DNA from: Escherichia coli | GTDB taxonomy: Bacteria > Pseudomonadota > Gammaproteobacteria > Enterobacterales > Enterobacteriaceae | NCBI RefSeq assembly: GCF_051903065.1 | Contig: NZ_CP178438.1 | Direction: 5' to 3' (one strand) | Length of the DNA: 64,000 nt | Shown: piece by piece, positions 21,662-44,040 of the stretch | Numbering within the stretch: the stretch's first letter is position 1 | How the letters are laid out: every line of letters starts with the position of its first letter | Translations under genes and position numbers: made by a program | Notes under the pieces: model-generated | Told to the model about the DNA's origin: nothing | The model's database searches: none | The model's input: only the letters and a program-made list of their open reading frames with translations

Positions 21662-21800
21662 AGTTTGCTCCTGCCATAACGTGAAGAAGCAATGACCTGG
21701 TGGTCCGTGACTTCCCTACGCTGGCATTATCCAGATCAGGTGATACGGGTATTTCTCAGCCTTCACGCAGAAGGGCACCCCGAGTCGTTTGGTTGCGATG
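21662..21800 (-). promoter_or_regulatory. TPP riboswitch (thi-box) in thiM 5' leader
   Basis: Minus-strand reads ...cggggtgcccttctgcgtgaaggctgagaaatacccgtatcacctgatctggataatgccagcgtagggaa..., the canonical E. coli thiM aptamer, followed by the SD-sequestering segment ggcaggagcaaactATG. Confidence 0.88.
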
Positions 21801-21883: not shown

Positions 21884-22156
21884 TTATTTGATATAAGAAT
21901 CCAGCACCTTCAGAACGACATCCAGATCTTCTTCACGCTTTAGTTCATCGCCCTGGTGAACAATGTGTTCTGTCAGATGACCTTTAATCACTTCCCGCAT
22001 CAGGCCGTTTACCGCGCCACGGATAGCAGCAATCTGTTGTAAAACTGCAGCGCATTCGTGCGGCTCGTCGAGCATTTTCTTGAGCGCCACGACCTGGCCC
22101 TGAATCTTACTGGCACGCGCTTTCAGTTTCTGTTTATCACGGATTGTATGAGACAT
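21884..22156 (-). CDS. rcnR: Ni/Co-responsive repressor RcnR (CsoR/RcnR family)
   Basis: 90 aa ([41 protein letters not shown]...). Confidence 0.92.
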
Positions 22157-22204
22157 GGCAACACCTGGTTAACAAGAATATGAAAAATCATAGCACTATT
22201 AATC

Positions 22205-22239
22205 TACTGGGGGGTAGTATCAGGTACTGGGGGGGAGTA
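22205..22239. promoter_or_regulatory. Tandem RcnR operator sites (TACT-G6/7-N-AGTA)
   Basis: tactggggggtagta (22205-22219) and tactgggggggagta (22225-22239) in the divergent rcnR-rcnA intergenic region. Confidence 0.8.
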
Positions 22240-22276
22240 GAATAAGATTGCCGAATTAATACTAAGAATTATTATC

Positions 22277-23101
22277 ATGACCGAATTTACAACTCTTCTT
22301 CAGCAAGGAAACGCCTGGTTCTTCATCCCCAGCGCCATCTTACTTGGTGCGCTTCATGGCCTGGAACCAGGGCACTCAAAAACGATGATGGCGGCGTTTA
22401 TCATCGCCATCAAAGGCACCATTAAACAGGCGGTGATGCTCGGACTGGCAGCAACCATTTCACATACTGCGGTGGTCTGGTTGATTGCCTTTGGCGGGAT
22501 GGTGATCAGCAAGCGCTTTACTGCTCAATCAGCAGAACCGTGGCTCCAGCTGATTTCCGCAGTGATCATTATTAGCACCGCGTTCTGGATGTTCTGGCGT
22601 ACCTGGCGCGGCGAACGCAACTGGCTGGAGAATATGCACGAGCATGATCATGAGCATCATCACCACGATCACGAAGATCACCAAGACCATGGACATCATC
22701 ACCATCACGAACATGGCGAGTATCAGGATGCCCATGCACGAGCCCATGCCAATGACATTAAACGACGCTTTGATGGTAGAGAGGTCACCAACTGGCAAAT
22801 TTTGCTATTTGGCTTAACCGGTGGCCTTATCCCCTGCCCGGCAGCAATTACCGTGCTGTTGATTTGCATTCAGTTGAAAGCCCTGACACTGGGCGCAACA
22901 CTGGTCGTCAGTTTCAGCATTGGCCTGGCGTTAACGCTGGTCACCGTAGGCGTTGGCGCAGCAATCAGCGTTCAGCAGGTCGCAAAACGCTGGAGCGGAT
23001 TTAACACTCTCGCTAAACGCGCCCCCTATTTTTCCAGTCTGTTGATTGGCTTAGTCGGTGTGTATATGGGCGTACATGGATTCATGGGCATAATGCGATA
23101 A
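22277..23101 (+). CDS. rcnA: Ni/Co efflux permease RcnA
   Basis: 274 aa; His-rich cytoplasmic loop (HEHDHEHHHHDHEDHQDHGHHHHHEHG). Confidence 0.92.
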   Translation: MTEFTTLLQQGNAWFFIPSAILLGALHGLEPGHSKTMMAAFIIAIKGTIKQAVMLGLAATISHTAVVWLIAFGGMVISKRFTAQSAEPWLQLISAVIIISTAFWMFWRTWRGERNWLENMHEHDHEHHHHDHEDHQDHGHHHHHEHGEYQDAHARAHANDIKRRFDGREVTNWQILLFGLTGGLIPCPAAITVLLICIQLKALTLGATLVVSFSIGLALTLVTVGVGAAISVQQVAKRWSGFNTLAKRAPYFSSLLIGLVGVYMGVHGFMGIMR

Positions 23102-23319
23102 CTCAATCCTTTAGGCTTGCATGTTATCTTCAGCCCAGGATGATTCTTAAATCAGCTATTTCCGCTGACTCTCTGCTCGATAAGGATGCTTTTAGGGCAT
23201 CCTTTCATTTACACTTTTTACGAAATCATGGGATCACTAACAAAATATCGCTTGTCAGTTATATTGTATGGCATGAAAGATATGCGACTGATATTACAGA
23301 TCCCCAAAGTGGAGAATTT

Positions 23320-23658
23320 ATGACCATTAAATATAAGATGTTGCTGGGTGCGCTTTTGCTGGTTACCAGTGCCGCCTGGGCCGCACCAGCCACCGCGGGT
23401 TCGACCAATACCTCGGGAATTTCTAAGTATGAGTTAAGCAGTTTCATTGCTGACTTTAAGCATTTCAAACCAGGGGACACCGTACCAGAAATGTACCGTA
23501 CCGATGAGTACAACATTAAGCAGTGGCAGTTGCGTAACCTGCCCGCACCTGACGCCGGAACCCACTGGACCTATATGGGTGGCGCGTACGTGTTGATCAG
23601 CGACACCGACGGTAAAATCATTAAAGCCTACGACGGTGAGATTTTTTATCATCGCTAA
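23320..23658 (+). CDS. rcnB: Periplasmic Ni/Co homeostasis protein RcnB (YohN)
   Basis: 112 aa from MTIKYKMLLGALLLVTSAAWA (signal peptide); upstream part of ORF judged spurious. Confidence 0.85.
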   Translation: MTIKYKMLLGALLLVTSAAWAAPATAGSTNTSGISKYELSSFIADFKHFKPGDTVPEMYRTDEYNIKQWQLRNLPAPDAGTHWTYMGGAYVLISDTDGKIIKAYDGEIFYHR

Positions 23659-24789: not shown

Positions 24790-27285
24790 TTACTGGCAAA
24801 TATAATTTCTACTTTCATCAATCTCTTTACCGAAGGTGATTGTGCATGAAAGTCCTTGTTGCTTATTAATTGCCACATTAACCGATGGCGGTACTTCATT
24901 GGTGCGAATAAATAACTGACTTCCCTGGCCGACAACGCCAATATTATGACCGTGGATATCATTGACTTCATAACCAAACGTTAATGGTTGCCCATCCGCT
25001 CTTAACGCTTTTATAAACCAGGGCTTGCGCTGATCGGTATCAAAATTAACCAGTACAACCGCGCCGCGATAAGGGGCGGCAATTTTCCGGTTGCCACGTA
25101 ATTCTGCTTCGCTATCGCTTTGCGACACATCCAGCATCAGGTGATTTTCCCGATAAGGTGTCATTCCGTCGTATACCACCACTCCATTACGGTTTGTTGT
25201 GCGATATTTTTGCCCATTGACATAGGCATCTTTAATTCCTGGCGCATTCATCACAGCAAACGTTTCGGAAAGACGGTTCGCCAGATTAACGCCACCCGAC
25301 CAGGCGACAATGCCCCCTGAAACACTGGCTCCAGCCTGTCGATAAGTACTCGACTGACTATAACTGCCATTCACTGTTGCCACCGGCGCGTTCCAGGTTA
25401 AATTCGCTCCAGCTGTCGTTTCATTTCCCTGATGTTGATGACTCAGGTTGACACCATAATTGAACTGTTCCCGACTCCCTACTGTTCCTGATAATCCCGT
25501 ATTATTTGAGGCAAACCCCTGATCATCAAACGTCGTTGAGTTAGACATATATATTTGCCGACGAGGCGTCGAAACGTCATCACCCCAATCAAAGGGAATC
25601 GATATAAAAATATTAAAACGTTTCTCTTCATGATGATTCTCGTCATAAGCCTGGCTTGCCGCGAGGGTATAGCTTATCCGTCGCAGGTTGTTGGAATAAC
25701 TCAACTGATAATCCTTACTACTGCCGCTACGCCCCCAGTAATCTCGCCATAACGTACTTAATGACACAGAACCCCAACCTTCTGGCAATGACTGGCTCAT
25801 ATTGGCGGAAAAGCTATTTTTGCGACCAAAATCATTCTGGTAATAATCGGCAATGTCATAGACATCGTTTTCATTACGGCGATAATTATCTTTATTGTTT
25901 GCCCAAACGTGATCATTAAATGTCCGGTAATCACGCGACGAATAACGCCAGGCCGCCAGACCAAAACGCGTCGACGTTTGGCTCACAAATTTGTTGTAGG
26001 CAATTTGATAACTTTGCCCGTCAAACACATCGCCGTTGTCTTGTTTACTATGCGACTTCGTGGCATCGACGGAAATGGCACCAATGCGTGTATTCCAGCC
26101 AGTCCCCAAAGTGAACGCGTAATAATTATTCGCGACCATCGAGCCACCATACAGCGTCAATAAGTTATTAAAACCACACTGATAACCCGCCTGGACAAAA
26201 TCACTTTGTTTGCTCGCCCCTTCAATATGGCTACGACCCGCCGCAAAATCATATTTCGACACGCCGGGTTGCAGCATATTTGGCACGGCTGCATAAGGCA
26301 CCAGATAGGTGGTTACCGAACCGTCCGCCTCTTTCACGCTGACATCAAGATCTGCTCCACCACCGGCCAACTGCAAATCTGTAATCGCAAACGGGCCAGG
26401 AGGAACCTCTTTCTGATAAACCACAAAACCATTCTGTTCAATAGTTATCAGCGCGTTACTCTGAGCAATCCCCTGCACCCGTGGCGTAAAATTTTGTTTC
26501 GAGTTAGGCAACATCTGCATATCACGAAACAACCGCACACCTCTGAAGCGAACAGAATCAAAAATATCGCTTGATGTGTACATATCACCCACGCGAAGCG
26601 TGCCGAGAAGTTGGGCAAATCCACGTTCCAGATACAGGGTATTGCTTTTCCACACCCCTGGATTGTTATTTGTTTTACTGAAACTGGCATCAGAATGCAG
26701 TTGCCACCCCAGTAAATTTAACCCGCTGTTAAAACGTACATATGTACTCTTACTATTACCCGACGCTTTATAGTCACTGTAATACTGACTCACATAATAA
26801 GAGGTATAAAACGCATTAATACCCCGCTCCCAGTTTTCCGGTGGAACATAGCCACTTTCCAGTTCTTCCACCCAGGCCTGCGGGACACTGAAATCGAGAC
26901 GAAAGACCCCGATATCCCAGGTATAGCTCCCACCCTGAACAAGTTGCTCAAATGTTAAACATTGCTTTCCACTGGCGAAGTTATCGGTGTTAATGCCTAA
27001 CCGCTTGATAATTTCCCTTGATAAACAAGTTTCTTGCGGGTTGTCTTTAACAATGATCTCATATTTCCCGCGCCATTTCTTATTGACATAAATATCGATG
27101 TCATACTGCCCCGGTAAGGGTTGATTATCATCAAGACGAATATTTGCAACCTGCTGGTCTTTCATTCCACCTATCATAAAATGGGTATCAAAGGTTTCTT
27201 CAGCTGCATAAGCTTCAATGCCGAGCAATAACGCTACGATTGCTGATGCAAGTGGGGTCATTCTCAACATAGGCAGCTCCTGCAA
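24790..27285 (-). CDS. yehB: Fimbrial outer-membrane usher YehB
   Basis: ~830 aa usher-type protein; exact start codon not resolved. Confidence 0.85.
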   Translation of the reverse strand: MQELPMLRMTPLASAIVALLLGIEAYAAEETFDTHFMIGGMKDQQVANIRLDDNQPLPGQYDIDIYVNKKWRGKYEIIVKDNPQETCLSREIIKRLGINTDNFASGKQCLTFEQLVQGGSYTWDIGVFRLDFSVPQAWVEELESGYVPPENWERGINAFYTSYYVSQYYSDYKASGNSKSTYVRFNSGLNLLGWQLHSDASFSKTNNNPGVWKSNTLYLERGFAQLLGTLRVGDMYTSSDIFDSVRFRGVRLFRDMQMLPNSKQNFTPRVQGIAQSNALITIEQNGFVVYQKEVPPGPFAITDLQLAGGGADLDVSVKEADGSVTTYLVPYAAVPNMLQPGVSKYDFAAGRSHIEGASKQSDFVQAGYQCGFNNLLTLYGGSMVANNYYAFTLGTGWNTRIGAISVDATKSHSKQDNGDVFDGQSYQIAYNKFVSQTSTRFGLAAWRYSSRDYRTFNDHVWANNKDNYRRNENDVYDIADYYQNDFGRKNSFSANMSQSLPEGWGSVSLSTLWRDYWGRSGSSKDYQLSYSNNLRRISYTLAASQAYDENHHEEKRFNIFISIPFDWGDDVSTPRRQIYMSNSTTFDDQGFASNNTGLSGTVGSREQFNYGVNLSHQHQGNETTAGANLTWNAPVATVNGSYSQSSTYRQAGASVSGGIVAWSGGVNLANRLSETFAVMNAPGIKDAYVNGQKYRTTNRNGVVVYDGMTPYRENHLMLDVSQSDSEAELRGNRKIAAPYRGAVVLVNFDTDQRKPWFIKALRADGQPLTFGYEVNDIHGHNIGVVGQGSQLFIRTNEVPPSVNVAINKQQGLSCTITFGKEIDESRNYICQ

Positions 27286-32833: not shown

Positions 32834-35800
32834 ATGAAGAGTTATATCTATCAGGACGAAAAATCACATAAATTCTGGGCGGTGGAGCAGCAGGGAAACG
32901 AGTTGCATATCAGCTGGGGAAAAGTTGGTACCCAAGGGCAAAGCCAGGTAAAAAATTTTGCTGATGTTGCAGCAGCGGAAAAAGCGAAACTGAAGCTTAT
33001 CGCGGAGAAAACGAAAAAAGGCTATGTGGAAAATGCTTCAGCAAACGTGCATATCCCCCCCATTACCAAAGCCACTCCTGAAGTTGAAACTTCCCCTGAG
33101 AGTAAAAACCAACGCCCCTGGCTGGCTGATGATGCGGTCATTCGGCTAACTGACGATATTAATCGATTTGCTTTTCCTCATCGCTCTCGCCCCAGAGAGA
33201 TCAATTATCTGCACAAAGATGGTCAAATATGGCAGCTCATCGCGAATAACACCAGAGCATATGATCCCGCCAACAATTACCGTTCTTATCCAGAAAACTG
33301 GCAGCAGGCTTTTGCTGAGTTACAAATGCGAGTTCAGGGTAATCAACAGACAGGGAGTGTGCAATCTGATGCAGCATTGCTCTGGAGTTTCTGGAACTCT
33401 TACTCTGCAGATGAACTGGTCGATGACTTAGTCATTCGCTGTGGTCTGGAAAGTGCCGTTGAAATTGCCCTTCTCGCTCTTCAACTTAGATATAAACCAG
33501 TAAAAGCCGACGTCACCACCATCATTCCCCCTGATCTCAAAGCAGAATCGCTACCGAACTGGCATCAACGTCTATGTCATCATCTTTCACTCGCTTCAGA
33601 AGATGAGTGGCAACGCTGTGTAGATAAGGTACTCGCGGCTATTCCCTCGCTATCCCCAGCACGGCAACCTTTTGCGGCGTTACTGATCCCTGAACGCCCG
33701 GATATCGCCAATGCTATGGCGCTACATTATGCAGATCAAAACGTTCCGGCGATGACCTGGTTAAGTATGATGGTAAGCGATGATGTTGCCCTGGCCATCC
33801 AGGAAAAATATGGTTTCCCACCGCTATATAATGATTTCCGCAAATATCTGGCTACGTTACTGGCAAATAATGGAATGCGTGGTGTAAGCCGGATTCTTCT
33901 CAAGCTACCTGTCGACTATCCCGTAAAATACACGGACCTTTTCACTCACATACACGCCAATGCTGAAAATCTTGTCAAATGGCTATGGAAAACGAATCAC
34001 CCGGATGCGATTCAAATTCTGATCCTCGGTGTAAATGGCAAGAAAAAGCACCTGGAATACTTAAGCAAAGCCTGCCAAAAACATCCCGCTGCGGCTATTG
34101 CCGCTTATGCTACTTTGCTGGCAATACATGAAAATAATGAGTGGCGTAAAGCGCTTGTCAAACTGATTACCGCCACGCCAGAGTTAGTATGCGAGGTCAT
34201 TCCCTGGGTTAATGCTAAGGCGGCAGGCATCTTATCTGAATGTCGTCCGCTGCCAATAGCTGAAGAATGTGAATATGCCACTGTGGATATGTTGCCGGAG
34301 CTGCTGGTCGCTCCACCGTGGGTAATAAATAAGAAAAAGAATGTCATACCCGTATTTGATTTACCGGTACTTCCCATTCCTGCCGTCACGGATATCACAC
34401 CAGGAATTACAGAGTTAATCAGTCATACTGACATATCCAGATTCAGTGAAATCGCGCAATATCAGGCATCACAGCAAACCTTATTTACCGACCTGCCACT
34501 AATTGAAAAAGAAAGCTGGGAGACATCTTTCATTCCTTTTACACCAGAACAACAAATTCTTTGGCAATTAGGTTTTAATGAATGGCTGCATTGCGAAAAT
34601 GACTTACATGAAAAAAAATATATACCGCAAAGCGCTGTTGATGCCTTGTTGCGCTTTGATTTTTCAGCACTAAAAGCTGAGTTTGCGAAATATCACAACA
34701 ATGCCAACAAAAGCTGGAATCTATCTGCGCTTTGTTACTTACCGGGACAACAGGCGATCTCATTTCTCAACCAAATAATCATTGAGGAGCGATATTCAGG
34801 TGAGAAAGAGATTCTGGCGGTTTTTGGTAGTACGGCCATTCCTGCGTTTATGACCTGCTTGCAACGAGATCATCAACGCCTGTGGATATTCACCCTTTTT
34901 ATTGGAGCCAGTGAACTAGCCTTACCAATGGCGCAGCGGTTACAGAAAAAAATAGCTTACAAGGATGCCGTTAATTGGCTGGCAAATAACCCGCGCCATG
35001 CCGCCGCCGGGCTACTGCCTTTGGCGCTGGGCAAACCGTGCCAAAATCGGGAATATGCCCGCCAGGCACTCCTCCTGCTAGTGAAATTAAACCAGCGAGA
35101 AACGATTGAGGAAATCGCCCAAGGATATAATCAACCTGATGTTTTAGCTGCGCTGGCAACATTATTTGATAGCGACCCACTGGAAGAATATCCTGCAAAA
35201 ATCGCCCCACTGCCCGGCTTTTATCAGTTCCCCTTATGGCGCAGACCTCGGCTTAAAAGTAACAACCTGCCTCTGCCAGATGACGCTATGCGCCACCTCG
35301 GCACAATGTTGAGCTTTCCACGCGACATTACCTCCTACGCTGGGCTGGCGATCATCAAAGAGACCTTCACCCGCGAATCACTGGCTGACTTTGGCTGGGA
35401 TCTCTACACGGCATGGACAGAAGCAGGCGCACCCGCAAAAGAGAACTGGGCATTTACCTCGCTGGGGATTCTAGGCAATGACGACACCGCGCGTAAACTA
35501 ACCCCGCTCATCCGCGCCTGGCCGGGTGAATCCCAGCATAAACGCGCGGTTTACGGGCTGGATGTGTTAGCCAGTATCGGTAGCGACATTGCGCTTATGT
35601 TGCTTAATGGCATTGCGCAAAAGATTAAATTCGTTGCATTACAGGAATATGCCAGCGACAGAATCAATATGGTCGCCGAAAATCGCGGACTGACAATGGC
35701 CGAACTGGAAGATCGCCTGGCACCGGATTTAGGGCTTGATAGCAGTGGCTCGCTAATATACTGGATTTCGGCCCCCGCAAATTCACCGTTGGTTTTGACG

Positions 35801-43400: not shown

Positions 43401-44040
43401 CCTACGTACCACCCGACGCTGGTCGCTGGCAGATTTTCATTCTCTGTTTGTTAATCATCCCTTTACCCGCCTGGTTACCCAGCGATTAATATGGGGGGGT
43501 TATCCGGCAAATGAACCGCGTCGTTTACTCAACGCCTTTCGTGTGGCCGCAGAGGGGGAGTTCTGCAATGCGCAGGATGAGCCCATTGACCTTCCTGCGG
43601 ATGCTCTGATTGGCATTGCCCACCCGTTAGAAATGACAGCAGAAATGCGCAGTGAATTTGCACAGCTTTTTGCCGATTACGAAATTATGCCGCCTTTTCG
43701 CCAGTTGTCGCGCCGCACGGTGCTGCTCACACCTGACGAGTCAACCAGTAACAGCCTGACTCGCTGGGAAGGTAAATCCGCTACCGTTGGGCAACTTATG
43801 GGAATGCGATACAAAGGCTGGGAATCAGGCTATGAGGACGCATTTGTCTATGACCTGGGTGAGTACCGGCTGGTCCTTAAGTTTTCACCCGGTTTTAACC
43901 ACTACAATGTTGATAGCAAAGCGCTAATGAGCTTCCGTTCTCTTCGAGTGTACCGTGACAATAAATCCGTCACTTTTGCCGAACTTGATGTGTTTGATTT
44001 GAGAGAGGCGTTAAGCGCACCTGACGTCATTTTCCATTAA
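40408..44040 (+). CDS. yehI: Giant DUF4132-family protein YehI (paralog lacking the N-terminal WGR module)
   Basis: 1210 aa; shares conserved C-terminal blocks with the two upstream genes (e.g. DDTARKLTPLIRAWPGESQHKRA-like, RRWS..F..FLVEHP..R); 9-bp gap from upstream gene. Confidence 0.8.
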   Translation: MDKELPWLADNAQVELKYKKGKTPLSHRNWPGEPVPVITESLIQTLGDELLQKAEKKKNIVWRYENFSLEWQSAITQAINLIGEHKPSVPARTMAALACIAQNDSQQLLDEIVQQEGLEYATEVVIARQFIARCYESDPLVVTLQYQNEDYGYGYRSETYNEFDLRLRKHLSLAEESCWQRCADKLIAALPGITKVRRPFIALILPEKPEIANELASLESSRSSLHSKEWLKVVATDNTAVKKLERYWGLDVFSDREASYMSQKNHFGYAACAALLREQGLAAIPRLAMYAHKEDCGSLLVQINHPQVIHTLLLVADKNKPSLQRVAKYSKNFPHATLAALAELLALKEPPARPGYPIIEDKKLPAQQKARDEYWRTLLQTLMASQPQLVEEVMQWLSTQARAVLNSYLLAPPKPVIDGTDNSNLPEILVSPPWRSKKKMTAPRLDLAPLELTPQVYWQPGEQERLASTESARYFSTESLAERMEQKSGRVVLQELGFGDDVWLFLNYILPGKLDAARNSLIVQWHYYQGRVEEILNGWNSPEAQLAEQALRSGHIEALINIWENDNYSRYRPEKSVWNLYLLAQLPREMALTFWLRINEKKHLFAGEDYFLSILGLDALPGLLLAFLHRPKETFPLILNFGATELALPVARVWHRFAGQRNLARQWILQWPEHTATALIPLVFIKPSDNSEAALLALRLLYEQGHGELLQTVANRWQRADVWPALEQLLKQGPMDIYPARIPKAPDFWHPQMWSRPRLITNNQPVTDDALEIIGEMLRFTQGGRFYSGLEQLKTFCQPQTLAAFAWDLFTAWQQAGAPAKDNWAFLALSLFGDESTARDLTTQILAWPQEGKSARAVSGLNILTLMNNDMALMQLHHISQRAKSRPLRDNAAEFLQVVAENRGLSQEELADRLVPILGLDDPQALSFDFDPRQFTVRFDENLNPVIFDQQNVRQKSVPRLRADDDQLKAPEALARLKGLKKDATQVSKNLLPRLEAALRTTRRWSLADFHSLFVNHPFTRLVTQRLIWGGYPANEPRRLLNAFRVAAEGEFCNAQDEPIDLPADALIGIAHPLEMTAEMRSEFAQLFADYEIMPPFRQLSRRTVLLTPDESTSNSLTRWEGKSATVGQLMGMRYKGWESGYEDAFVYDLGEYRLVLKFSPGFNHYNVDSKALMSFRSLRVYRDNKSVTFAELDVFDLREALSAPDVIFH

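Follow-up and report, generated by a model that had tools for sequence, protein, structure and literature searches.

Tandem RcnR operators with G6 and G7 tracts in the rcnR–rcnA intergenic region of Escherichia coli

Two guanine tracts, one of six and one of seven bases, lie close together between the divergent genes rcnR and rcnA in a 64,000-nucleotide stretch of an Escherichia coli genome (contig NZ_CP178438.1 of assembly GCF_051903065.1), which was analysed as a whole and is hereafter called the window. A sequence-only reading had assigned the tracts to two tandem operators of the repressor RcnR, had considered the seventh G of the second site a deviation from a six-G motif, and had proposed that tract length might tune repressor affinity or be prone to slippage. 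The question raised by the locus is whether the longer tract is a peculiarity of this strain, an error in its assembly or the regular form of the operator, and what variation of its length, where it occurs, would imply.

The operator pair and its gene context

Direct reading of the window placed site 1 (TACTGGGGGGTAGTA, TACT-GGGGGG-T-AGTA) at 22205-22219 and site 2 (TACTGGGGGGGAGTA, TACT-GGGGGGG-AGTA) at 22225-22239, the G runs occupying 22209-22214 (6 G) and 22229-22235 (7 G), respectively. The RcnR operator motif, TACT-G6-N-AGTA, is present twice, with N=T in site 1 and N=G in site 2, and both copies lie in tandem in the intergenic region from which rcnR (minus strand) and rcnA (plus strand) diverge, separated by 5 bp as had been claimed. 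The elements of the locus are as follows.

22205..22219, no strand assigned: RcnR operator site 1, rcnR-proximal, TACT-G6-T-AGTA (exact motif match and K-12 identity)
22220..22224, no strand assigned: spacer TCAGG, 5 bp, between the sites, resulting in a 20-bp site-to-site register (direct reading and repeat finder)
22225..22239, no strand assigned: RcnR operator site 2, rcnA-proximal, TACT-G7-AGTA, that is, G6 with N=G (exact motif match and K-12 identity)
22209..22214, plus strand: G6 tract of site 1, at the inferred -35 position of the rcnR promoter (sequence)
22229..22235, plus strand: G7 tract of site 2, within the main rcnA promoter spacer of 17 bp (sequence and promoter geometry)
21884..22156, minus strand: rcnR, Ni(II)/Co(II)-responsive repressor (NCBIfam RcnR equivalog NF011613, Pfam PF02583)
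22277..23101, plus strand: rcnA, Ni/Co efflux pump and regulated target (NCBIfam NF007454, 558 bits; Pfam NicO)
23320..23658, plus strand: rcnB, periplasmic accessory protein (Pfam RcnB, PF11776; start taken from the K-12 annotation offset)

When the 64-kb window was searched with the pattern TACTGGGGGGNAGTA, allowing for up to two mismatches, only sites 1 and 2 were retrieved, each with 0 mismatches; by chance, 0.16 matches are expected, and two or more were reached in 1 of 100 shuffles. A repeat finder, which operates independently of the pattern search, returned two 15-nt copies with a start-to-start distance of 20 nt. With runs of 6-7 G located within 27 nt of the same strand, the pair could also be taken for chance G-rich palindromes, or for an element whose action depends on a non-B structure (a G-quadruplex, for instance) and not on protein binding. 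Two exact matches against the 0.16 expected speak against the former, and a three-tetrad quadruplex is impossible because only two G runs are present. As, furthermore, position, arms, register and tract are conserved together with rcnR in ∼80 species (see below), and the literature assigns the sites to RcnR (PMC7055735, PMC3902906), this alternative retains practically no probability.

In the alignment of the window with K-12 MG1655, which shares the divergent gene arrangement with its two TACT-G6-N-AGTA sites, the operator pair (35 bp), the spacer and the distances to both start codons were identical. Since K-12 MG1655 is the strain behind the work that defined the motif, and is identical including G7, the apparent seventh G is just the N of the motif, which is G in site 2; the notion that site 2 deviates by having seven Gs rather than six was, therefore, mistaken. 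The operator pair is already known, and G7 is the normal, conserved state of site 2. The 120-bp intergenic region contains a single difference, which is outside the operators: position 22244 is A in the window, whereas K-12 and the 13 other E. coli strains sampled all have C. Strain A30 matched the window at 100% over a 241-nt query covering this position.

Regarding K-12, those passages of PMC7055735, PMC3902906 and PMC7105576 that cite Iwig & Chivers 2009 and Blaha et al. 2011 describe two TACT-G6-N-AGTA sites in the rcnR–rcnA intergenic region, one RcnR tetramer binding to each, and recognition of the A-form-like G tracts; the content of Iwig & Chivers 2009 (PubMed 19703465) is reproduced here as conveyed by the citing papers. 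Binding of apo-RcnR and its release by Ni(II)/Co(II) are described, in corresponding passages of the same three papers, for the K-12 sequence identical to that of the window, and Blaha et al. 2011 announce by their title that a shared operator represses both rcnA and rcnR. Binding to the Salmonella rcnA promoter was fitted with two tetramers per DNA (PMC5709419); a text search of Salmonella papers for tract mutants and for probe sequences yielded nothing of use. Tandem type 1 sites of the CsoR/RcnR family are defined by an unbroken G tract and 4-bp AT-rich inverted arms 7 bp apart (PMC3902906), from which the sites in the window do not differ; RcnR of E. coli is the cited tandem example of this class (PMC3902906). 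Type 2 CsoR operators (such as those of Streptomyces lividans or B. subtilis CsoR) likewise are G-tract pseudopalindromes with GTA/TAC dyads and A-form-like conformational recognition, but their G/C sequence is divided into two short tracts with 2-4 bases in between, their arms are ∼11 bp apart and each site binds two tetramers, whereas the tract of either site in the window is continuous and, according to the literature, bound by one tetramer (PMC3902906).

The genes flanking the operator pair are consistent with this assignment. The rcnR product matched NF011613 with 197 bits (cut-off 138; E=4e-59), is identical to RcnR of K-12, and contains, in translation, His3, Cys35, His60 and His64, the positions of the H-C-H-H metal-ligand motif of RcnR (PMC11672702). 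RcnA comprises 274 amino acids, as in K-12. The program-made ORF for rcnB extends from 23140 to 23658; the literature reports co-regulation of this gene with rcnA. Taken together, the two exact motif matches and the flanking rcnR and rcnA bear out that these are tandem RcnR operators in a divergent promoter region, and the 35-bp segment is almost certainly the canonical tandem operator of this member of the CsoR/RcnR family in its normal form, which would act by the promoter occlusion proposed in the next section. No contrary evidence was found for this explanation, for which binding itself is taken from the literature.

Further features were noted in the neighbourhood, some of which differ between strains. 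Upstream of rcnR lie thiM and thiD, and an ordinary, known TPP riboswitch (Rfam RF00059, 71 bits; 21696-21792, minus strand) is located upstream of thiM, between this gene and the 3′ end of rcnR. In O157:H7 TW14359, the thiM riboswitch and rcnR are separated by ∼2 kb (24943-26904 of the TW14359 locus) encoding an HTH-like, a hypothetical and an outer membrane protein in small ORFs, three in number, an insertion absent from both the window and K-12. The His-rich cytoplasmic loop of RcnA (window 22630-22730) differs from that of K-12 at several residues (NMHEHDHEHHHHDHEDHQDH... versus NMHGHDYEHHHHDHEHHHDH...) and is 11 amino acids longer, with HD repeats, in TW14359; judged from these sequences, the loop appears to be polymorphic in length and sequence among strains. 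The rcnA gene of E. coli strain B2 (swine) is annotated as frameshifted.

Promoter geometry and the proposed mode of repression

Transcription start sites (TSSs) were available for K-12 from Kim et al. 2012 (PMC3415461, Table S1): two for rcnA (2183912 with 25 reads and 2183891 with 12 reads; rcnA start 2183939) and one for rcnR (2183841 with 11 reads; rcnR start 2183818). As the intergenic region is of equal length in both genomes, these coordinates could be converted directly, using the ATG codons of rcnA (22277) and rcnR (22156) as references. The promoter elements resulting from the conversion are as follows.

22250, plus strand: main rcnA TSS, 27-nt 5′-UTR (converted from Kim et al. 2012)
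22229, plus strand: minor rcnA TSS, 48-nt 5′-UTR (converted from Kim et al. 2012)
22179, minus strand: rcnR TSS, 23-nt 5′-UTR (converted from Kim et al. 2012)
22238..22243, plus strand: putative -10 hexamer of the main rcnA promoter, TAGAAT, 6 nt upstream of the TSS (inferred from the TSS; conserved across species)
22187..22195, minus strand: putative extended -10 of rcnR, TGcTATGAT on the minus strand (inferred from the TSS)

In the published table, the K-12 sequence upstream of the main rcnA TSS ends with ...GAGTAGAATCAGATTG, and that at the rcnR TSS with ...GTGCTATGATTTTTCATA (Kim et al. 2012, PMC3415461, Table S1); in orthologous loci, sequence resembling TGCTATAAT is found at the place of the rcnR extended -10. 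Promoters obtained from a consensus scan were discarded in favour of the mapped TSSs, as the one on the plus strand would start after the rcnA ATG and the one on the minus strand inside rcnR.

Relative to the main rcnA TSS of K-12, site 2 extends from -25 to -11, with the -10 sequence TAGAAT overlapping its AGTA arm, and site 1 from -45 to -31; relative to the rcnR TSS, site 1 extends from -26 to -40. Both operators thus overlap promoters that they regulate. Combining the published TSSs with the sequence also places the G7 tract within the rcnA promoter spacer of 17 bp. Site 1 would cover the -35 position of rcnA as well as that of rcnR, where spacing from the TSSs yields weak matches to a -35 hexamer (TAGTAT and ACCCCC).

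This geometry suggests how repression could operate. As described in the literature, each TACT-(G/C tract)-AGTA site would be occupied by one RcnR tetramer as long as Ni(II) or Co(II) is absent, the protein contacting the AT-rich inverted arms and recognizing the A-form-like shape that the unbroken G tract imparts on the DNA. Occupancy of site 2 would cover the -10 element and the spacer of the main rcnA promoter, and that of site 1 the -35 positions of the rcnA and rcnR promoters. Because of this placement, bound RcnR would keep RNA polymerase off both divergent promoters, which would result in repression of rcnAB and autoregulation of rcnR; binding of metal to RcnR, according to the literature, would lead to its release and turn efflux on. 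In this model, we infer the exact -10 and -35 hexamers and the occlusion step from the mapped TSSs; binding, stoichiometry and metal response are contributed by the literature, and identity with K-12, conservation and TSS geometry by the present comparison.

An imperfect 16-nt inverted repeat (22193-22208 and 22236-22251, 81% complementary) flanks the whole operator pair. One of its arms includes some of the extended -10 of rcnR, and the other the -10 of rcnA; the A at 22244 provides one more complementary position than in K-12. This base is located one position 3′ of the rcnA -10 hexamer, in the discriminator region. A T-to-C SNP at 22179, typical of O157:H7 and some other strains, affects exactly the mapped TSS base of rcnR.

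Conservation of the operator pair in E. coli and other species

The 64-nt core of the region (22180-22243) was found, without any change, in ∼4,805-4,814 of the 5,345 complete E. coli genomes carrying it (∼90%). The common E. coli SNPs of the region, at 22173, 22179, 22197 and 22221 (the latter a C-to-T change within the 5-bp spacer), are all located outside the arms and the tracts; strain KE55 has one G-to-A change within the tract of site 1.

Beyond E. coli, rcnR loci were surveyed with one genome per species (80 loci, from Escherichia to Vibrio), the region upstream of rcnR being read without assumed tract lengths. Site 2 was TACT-G7-AGTA in 73 of the 78 complete loci; the remaining five had G8 (Enterobacter sp. 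R1 and one Morganella morganii), G6 (Citrobacter sp. R56) or, twice, TACT-A-G6-AGTA. Site 1 corresponded exactly to TACT-G6-T-AGTA in 59 of the 68 loci with two sites, its variants being substitutions within the tract, and the start-to-start register was 20 nt in 66 of these 68, irrespective of the sequence of the 5-bp spacer, which varies freely. When conservation was profiled column by column, the intergenic region showed a single near-invariant block, formed by the 35 bp together with the adjoining TAGAAT. The published N is, thus, nearly fixed across ∼80 species, as T in site 1 and as G in site 2, and the latter site is better written as TACT-G7-AGTA. Eight loci had a single operator (five Morganella, Edwardsiella anguillarum, Erwinia psidii and one Enterobacter), which was always the G7-type site; this site is the core site, kept where only one operator is present.

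Individual genomes illustrate how the region can be altered or moved. E. coli 97_3250 carries an exact 20-bp deletion of one repeat unit (window 22209-22228), probably brought about by recombination or slippage between the direct repeats, and is a natural single-operator E. coli with one TACT-G7-AGTA site. In Escherichia whittamii, the rcnR start codon adjoins sequence from inside rcnA (...NAWFFIPSA...), and this genome appears to have lost the 5′ end of rcnA together with the entire operator/promoter region. Vibrio europaeus encodes an RcnR 76% identical to that of E. coli and has the same operator pair (G6-T and G7, 20-nt register), a combination suggesting that the whole regulatory module was transferred horizontally.

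The survey also bears on the accuracy of the window itself. Homopolymers are prone to sequencing errors, variants of site 2 longer or shorter by one base occur in ∼4% of assemblies, and the O157:H7 strains EC4115 (G6) and TW14359 (G7), which we take to be isolates of one outbreak, disagree; it could be argued, on these grounds, that the true sequence of the window is G6 in both sites. G7, in turn, is found in K-12 MG1655, in ∼90% of the 5,345 complete E. coli genomes and in 73 of the 78 species, and a true G6 would reduce the spacing between the arms to 6 bp, an unusual state. An erroneous G7 is so improbable that it can be disregarded, and resequencing, which had been named as the check, would be very unlikely to yield G6 in both sites, given that strains and species have G7 as the common state.

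Tract-length variation at site 2 and what it may mean

A comparison of tract lengths across strains, as had been proposed, gave G7 as the dominant state of site 2 in E. coli, G8 and G6 each accounting for ∼2% of assemblies. Exact variant queries returned the +1 variant (G8) of site 2 from ∼96-105 and the -1 variant (G6) from ∼117-126 of 5,345 genomes; for site 1, the +1 variant (G7) was present in 25-29 genomes and the -1 variant (G5) in 19 (∼0.4-0.5% each way). Counts are given as ranges, as the “≥99%” band of short BLAST queries includes up to 9 partial alignments (19 full-length versus 28 counted for G5 of site 1). Variants differing by one base were, accordingly, 4-5 times more common at the longer tract of site 2 than at site 1, an excess that is expected from slippage and, equally, from homopolymer assembly errors. 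Two other homopolymers of the window were of little help in setting an error baseline: a G7 run within yehI (43493-43499) represents a minority allele, with exact matches in 53 genomes only, and exact ±1 variants of it were found in none of the E. coli genomes; a C7 run (33055-33061) belongs to a segment of a DUF4132 gene present in 728 of 5,426 E. coli genomes (85 exact), too patchy for the purpose. The annotation of O157 TW14359 gives the genes corresponding to these two runs as frameshifted or interrupted; the cluster of the DUF4132 gene is highly variable among strains.

At least one of the variants is real. A 3,065-nt query with the haplotype of O121 strain RM8352, in which G8 was read directly, matched eight genomes at 100% and a ninth with one mismatch; each of the nine spans the G8 length, and no genome of this haplotype spans that of G7. 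Eight named genomes of this haplotype, originating from several laboratories and years, are also among the exact G8 matches. The presence of G8 in all nine demonstrates that this variant is stably inherited, and it is clearly a heritable allele of O121:H19. G6 in site 2 was found in O111:H- 11128 and other O111 genomes. Within O157:H7, EC4115 and SS17 have G6, whereas TW14359, for which G6 would have been expected, has G7. This mismatch points to an assembly error or a very recent change; it weakens the case for all variants being real, and those other than G8 of O121:H19 may be assembly errors. The suggestion that the G tract is prone to slippage is, therefore, upheld in part: the ±1 variants of site 2 in ∼4% of E. 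coli assemblies and the inherited G8 speak for it, albeit in strains other than that of the window, and some fraction of the variants may have arisen during assembly.

Could the tract act as a slip-strand tuning element, with G6 and G8 lineages differing in basal or induced Ni/Co efflux? A gain or loss of one G would change the spacing of the arms from 7 bp to 8 or 6 bp and, at the same time, the -35/-10 spacer of rcnA from 17 bp to 18 or 16 bp. The location of the tract within this promoter spacer, the 4-5-fold excess of variants over the shorter tract of site 1, and the occurrence of G8 in the O121 haplotype and of G6 in O111 genomes all agree with such a role. Conversely, ±1 lengths are no more frequent among species (3 of 78) than within E. 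coli, and seven bases are short for classical phase variation; moreover, EC4115 and TW14359 disagreeing suggests that some variants are assembly errors. The retention of G7 in 73 of 78 species and the rarity of ±1 lengths among species argue for purifying selection combined with rare slippage or error rather than for an adaptive switch, and we regard tuning by slippage as unlikely.

Promoter switches operating through the length of a homopolymer in the spacer are known from phase variation in Neisseria and Haemophilus. In these phase-variable promoters, as in the one considered here, a homopolymer is located between -35 and -10, and length variants occur in the population. Unlike them, the tract of the window comprises 7 bp only, and its variants are rare, mostly fixed within lineages rather than switching, and connected to no known ON/OFF phenotype. 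The length of a phase-variable tract would be expected not to be conserved between species, whereas that of site 2 is the same in 73 of 78 species genomes; being conserved across genera, the tract does not resemble a classical phase-variable homopolymer.

Also unlikely, in our estimate, is the proposition that the site 2 tract may be a low-rate slippage hotspot, with ±1 alleles that would be genuine regulatory variants passed on by inheritance, G8 having become fixed in O121:H19 and G6 occurring in O111 and in certain other lineages. The preferred reading, that of a canonical operator in its normal form, leaves nothing to explain, as the window contains the textbook RcnR operator in its reference form. 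What is added is descriptive: the N fixed as T or G, the G7 site as the core site, the tract within the promoter spacer, and the existence of natural G6 and G8 alleles. If the tract were indeed a slippage hotspot, a single base could alter the affinity of RcnR and the strength of the promoter together, as the tract lies both between the arms and in the rcnA spacer, and pathogen lineages might differ in their set-points for nickel and cobalt efflux. The natural G6 and G8 alleles are, in any case, ready material for addressing the effects of tract length on a repressor of the CsoR/RcnR family, and they are relevant to those who employ the RcnR operator in cobalt and nickel biosensors.
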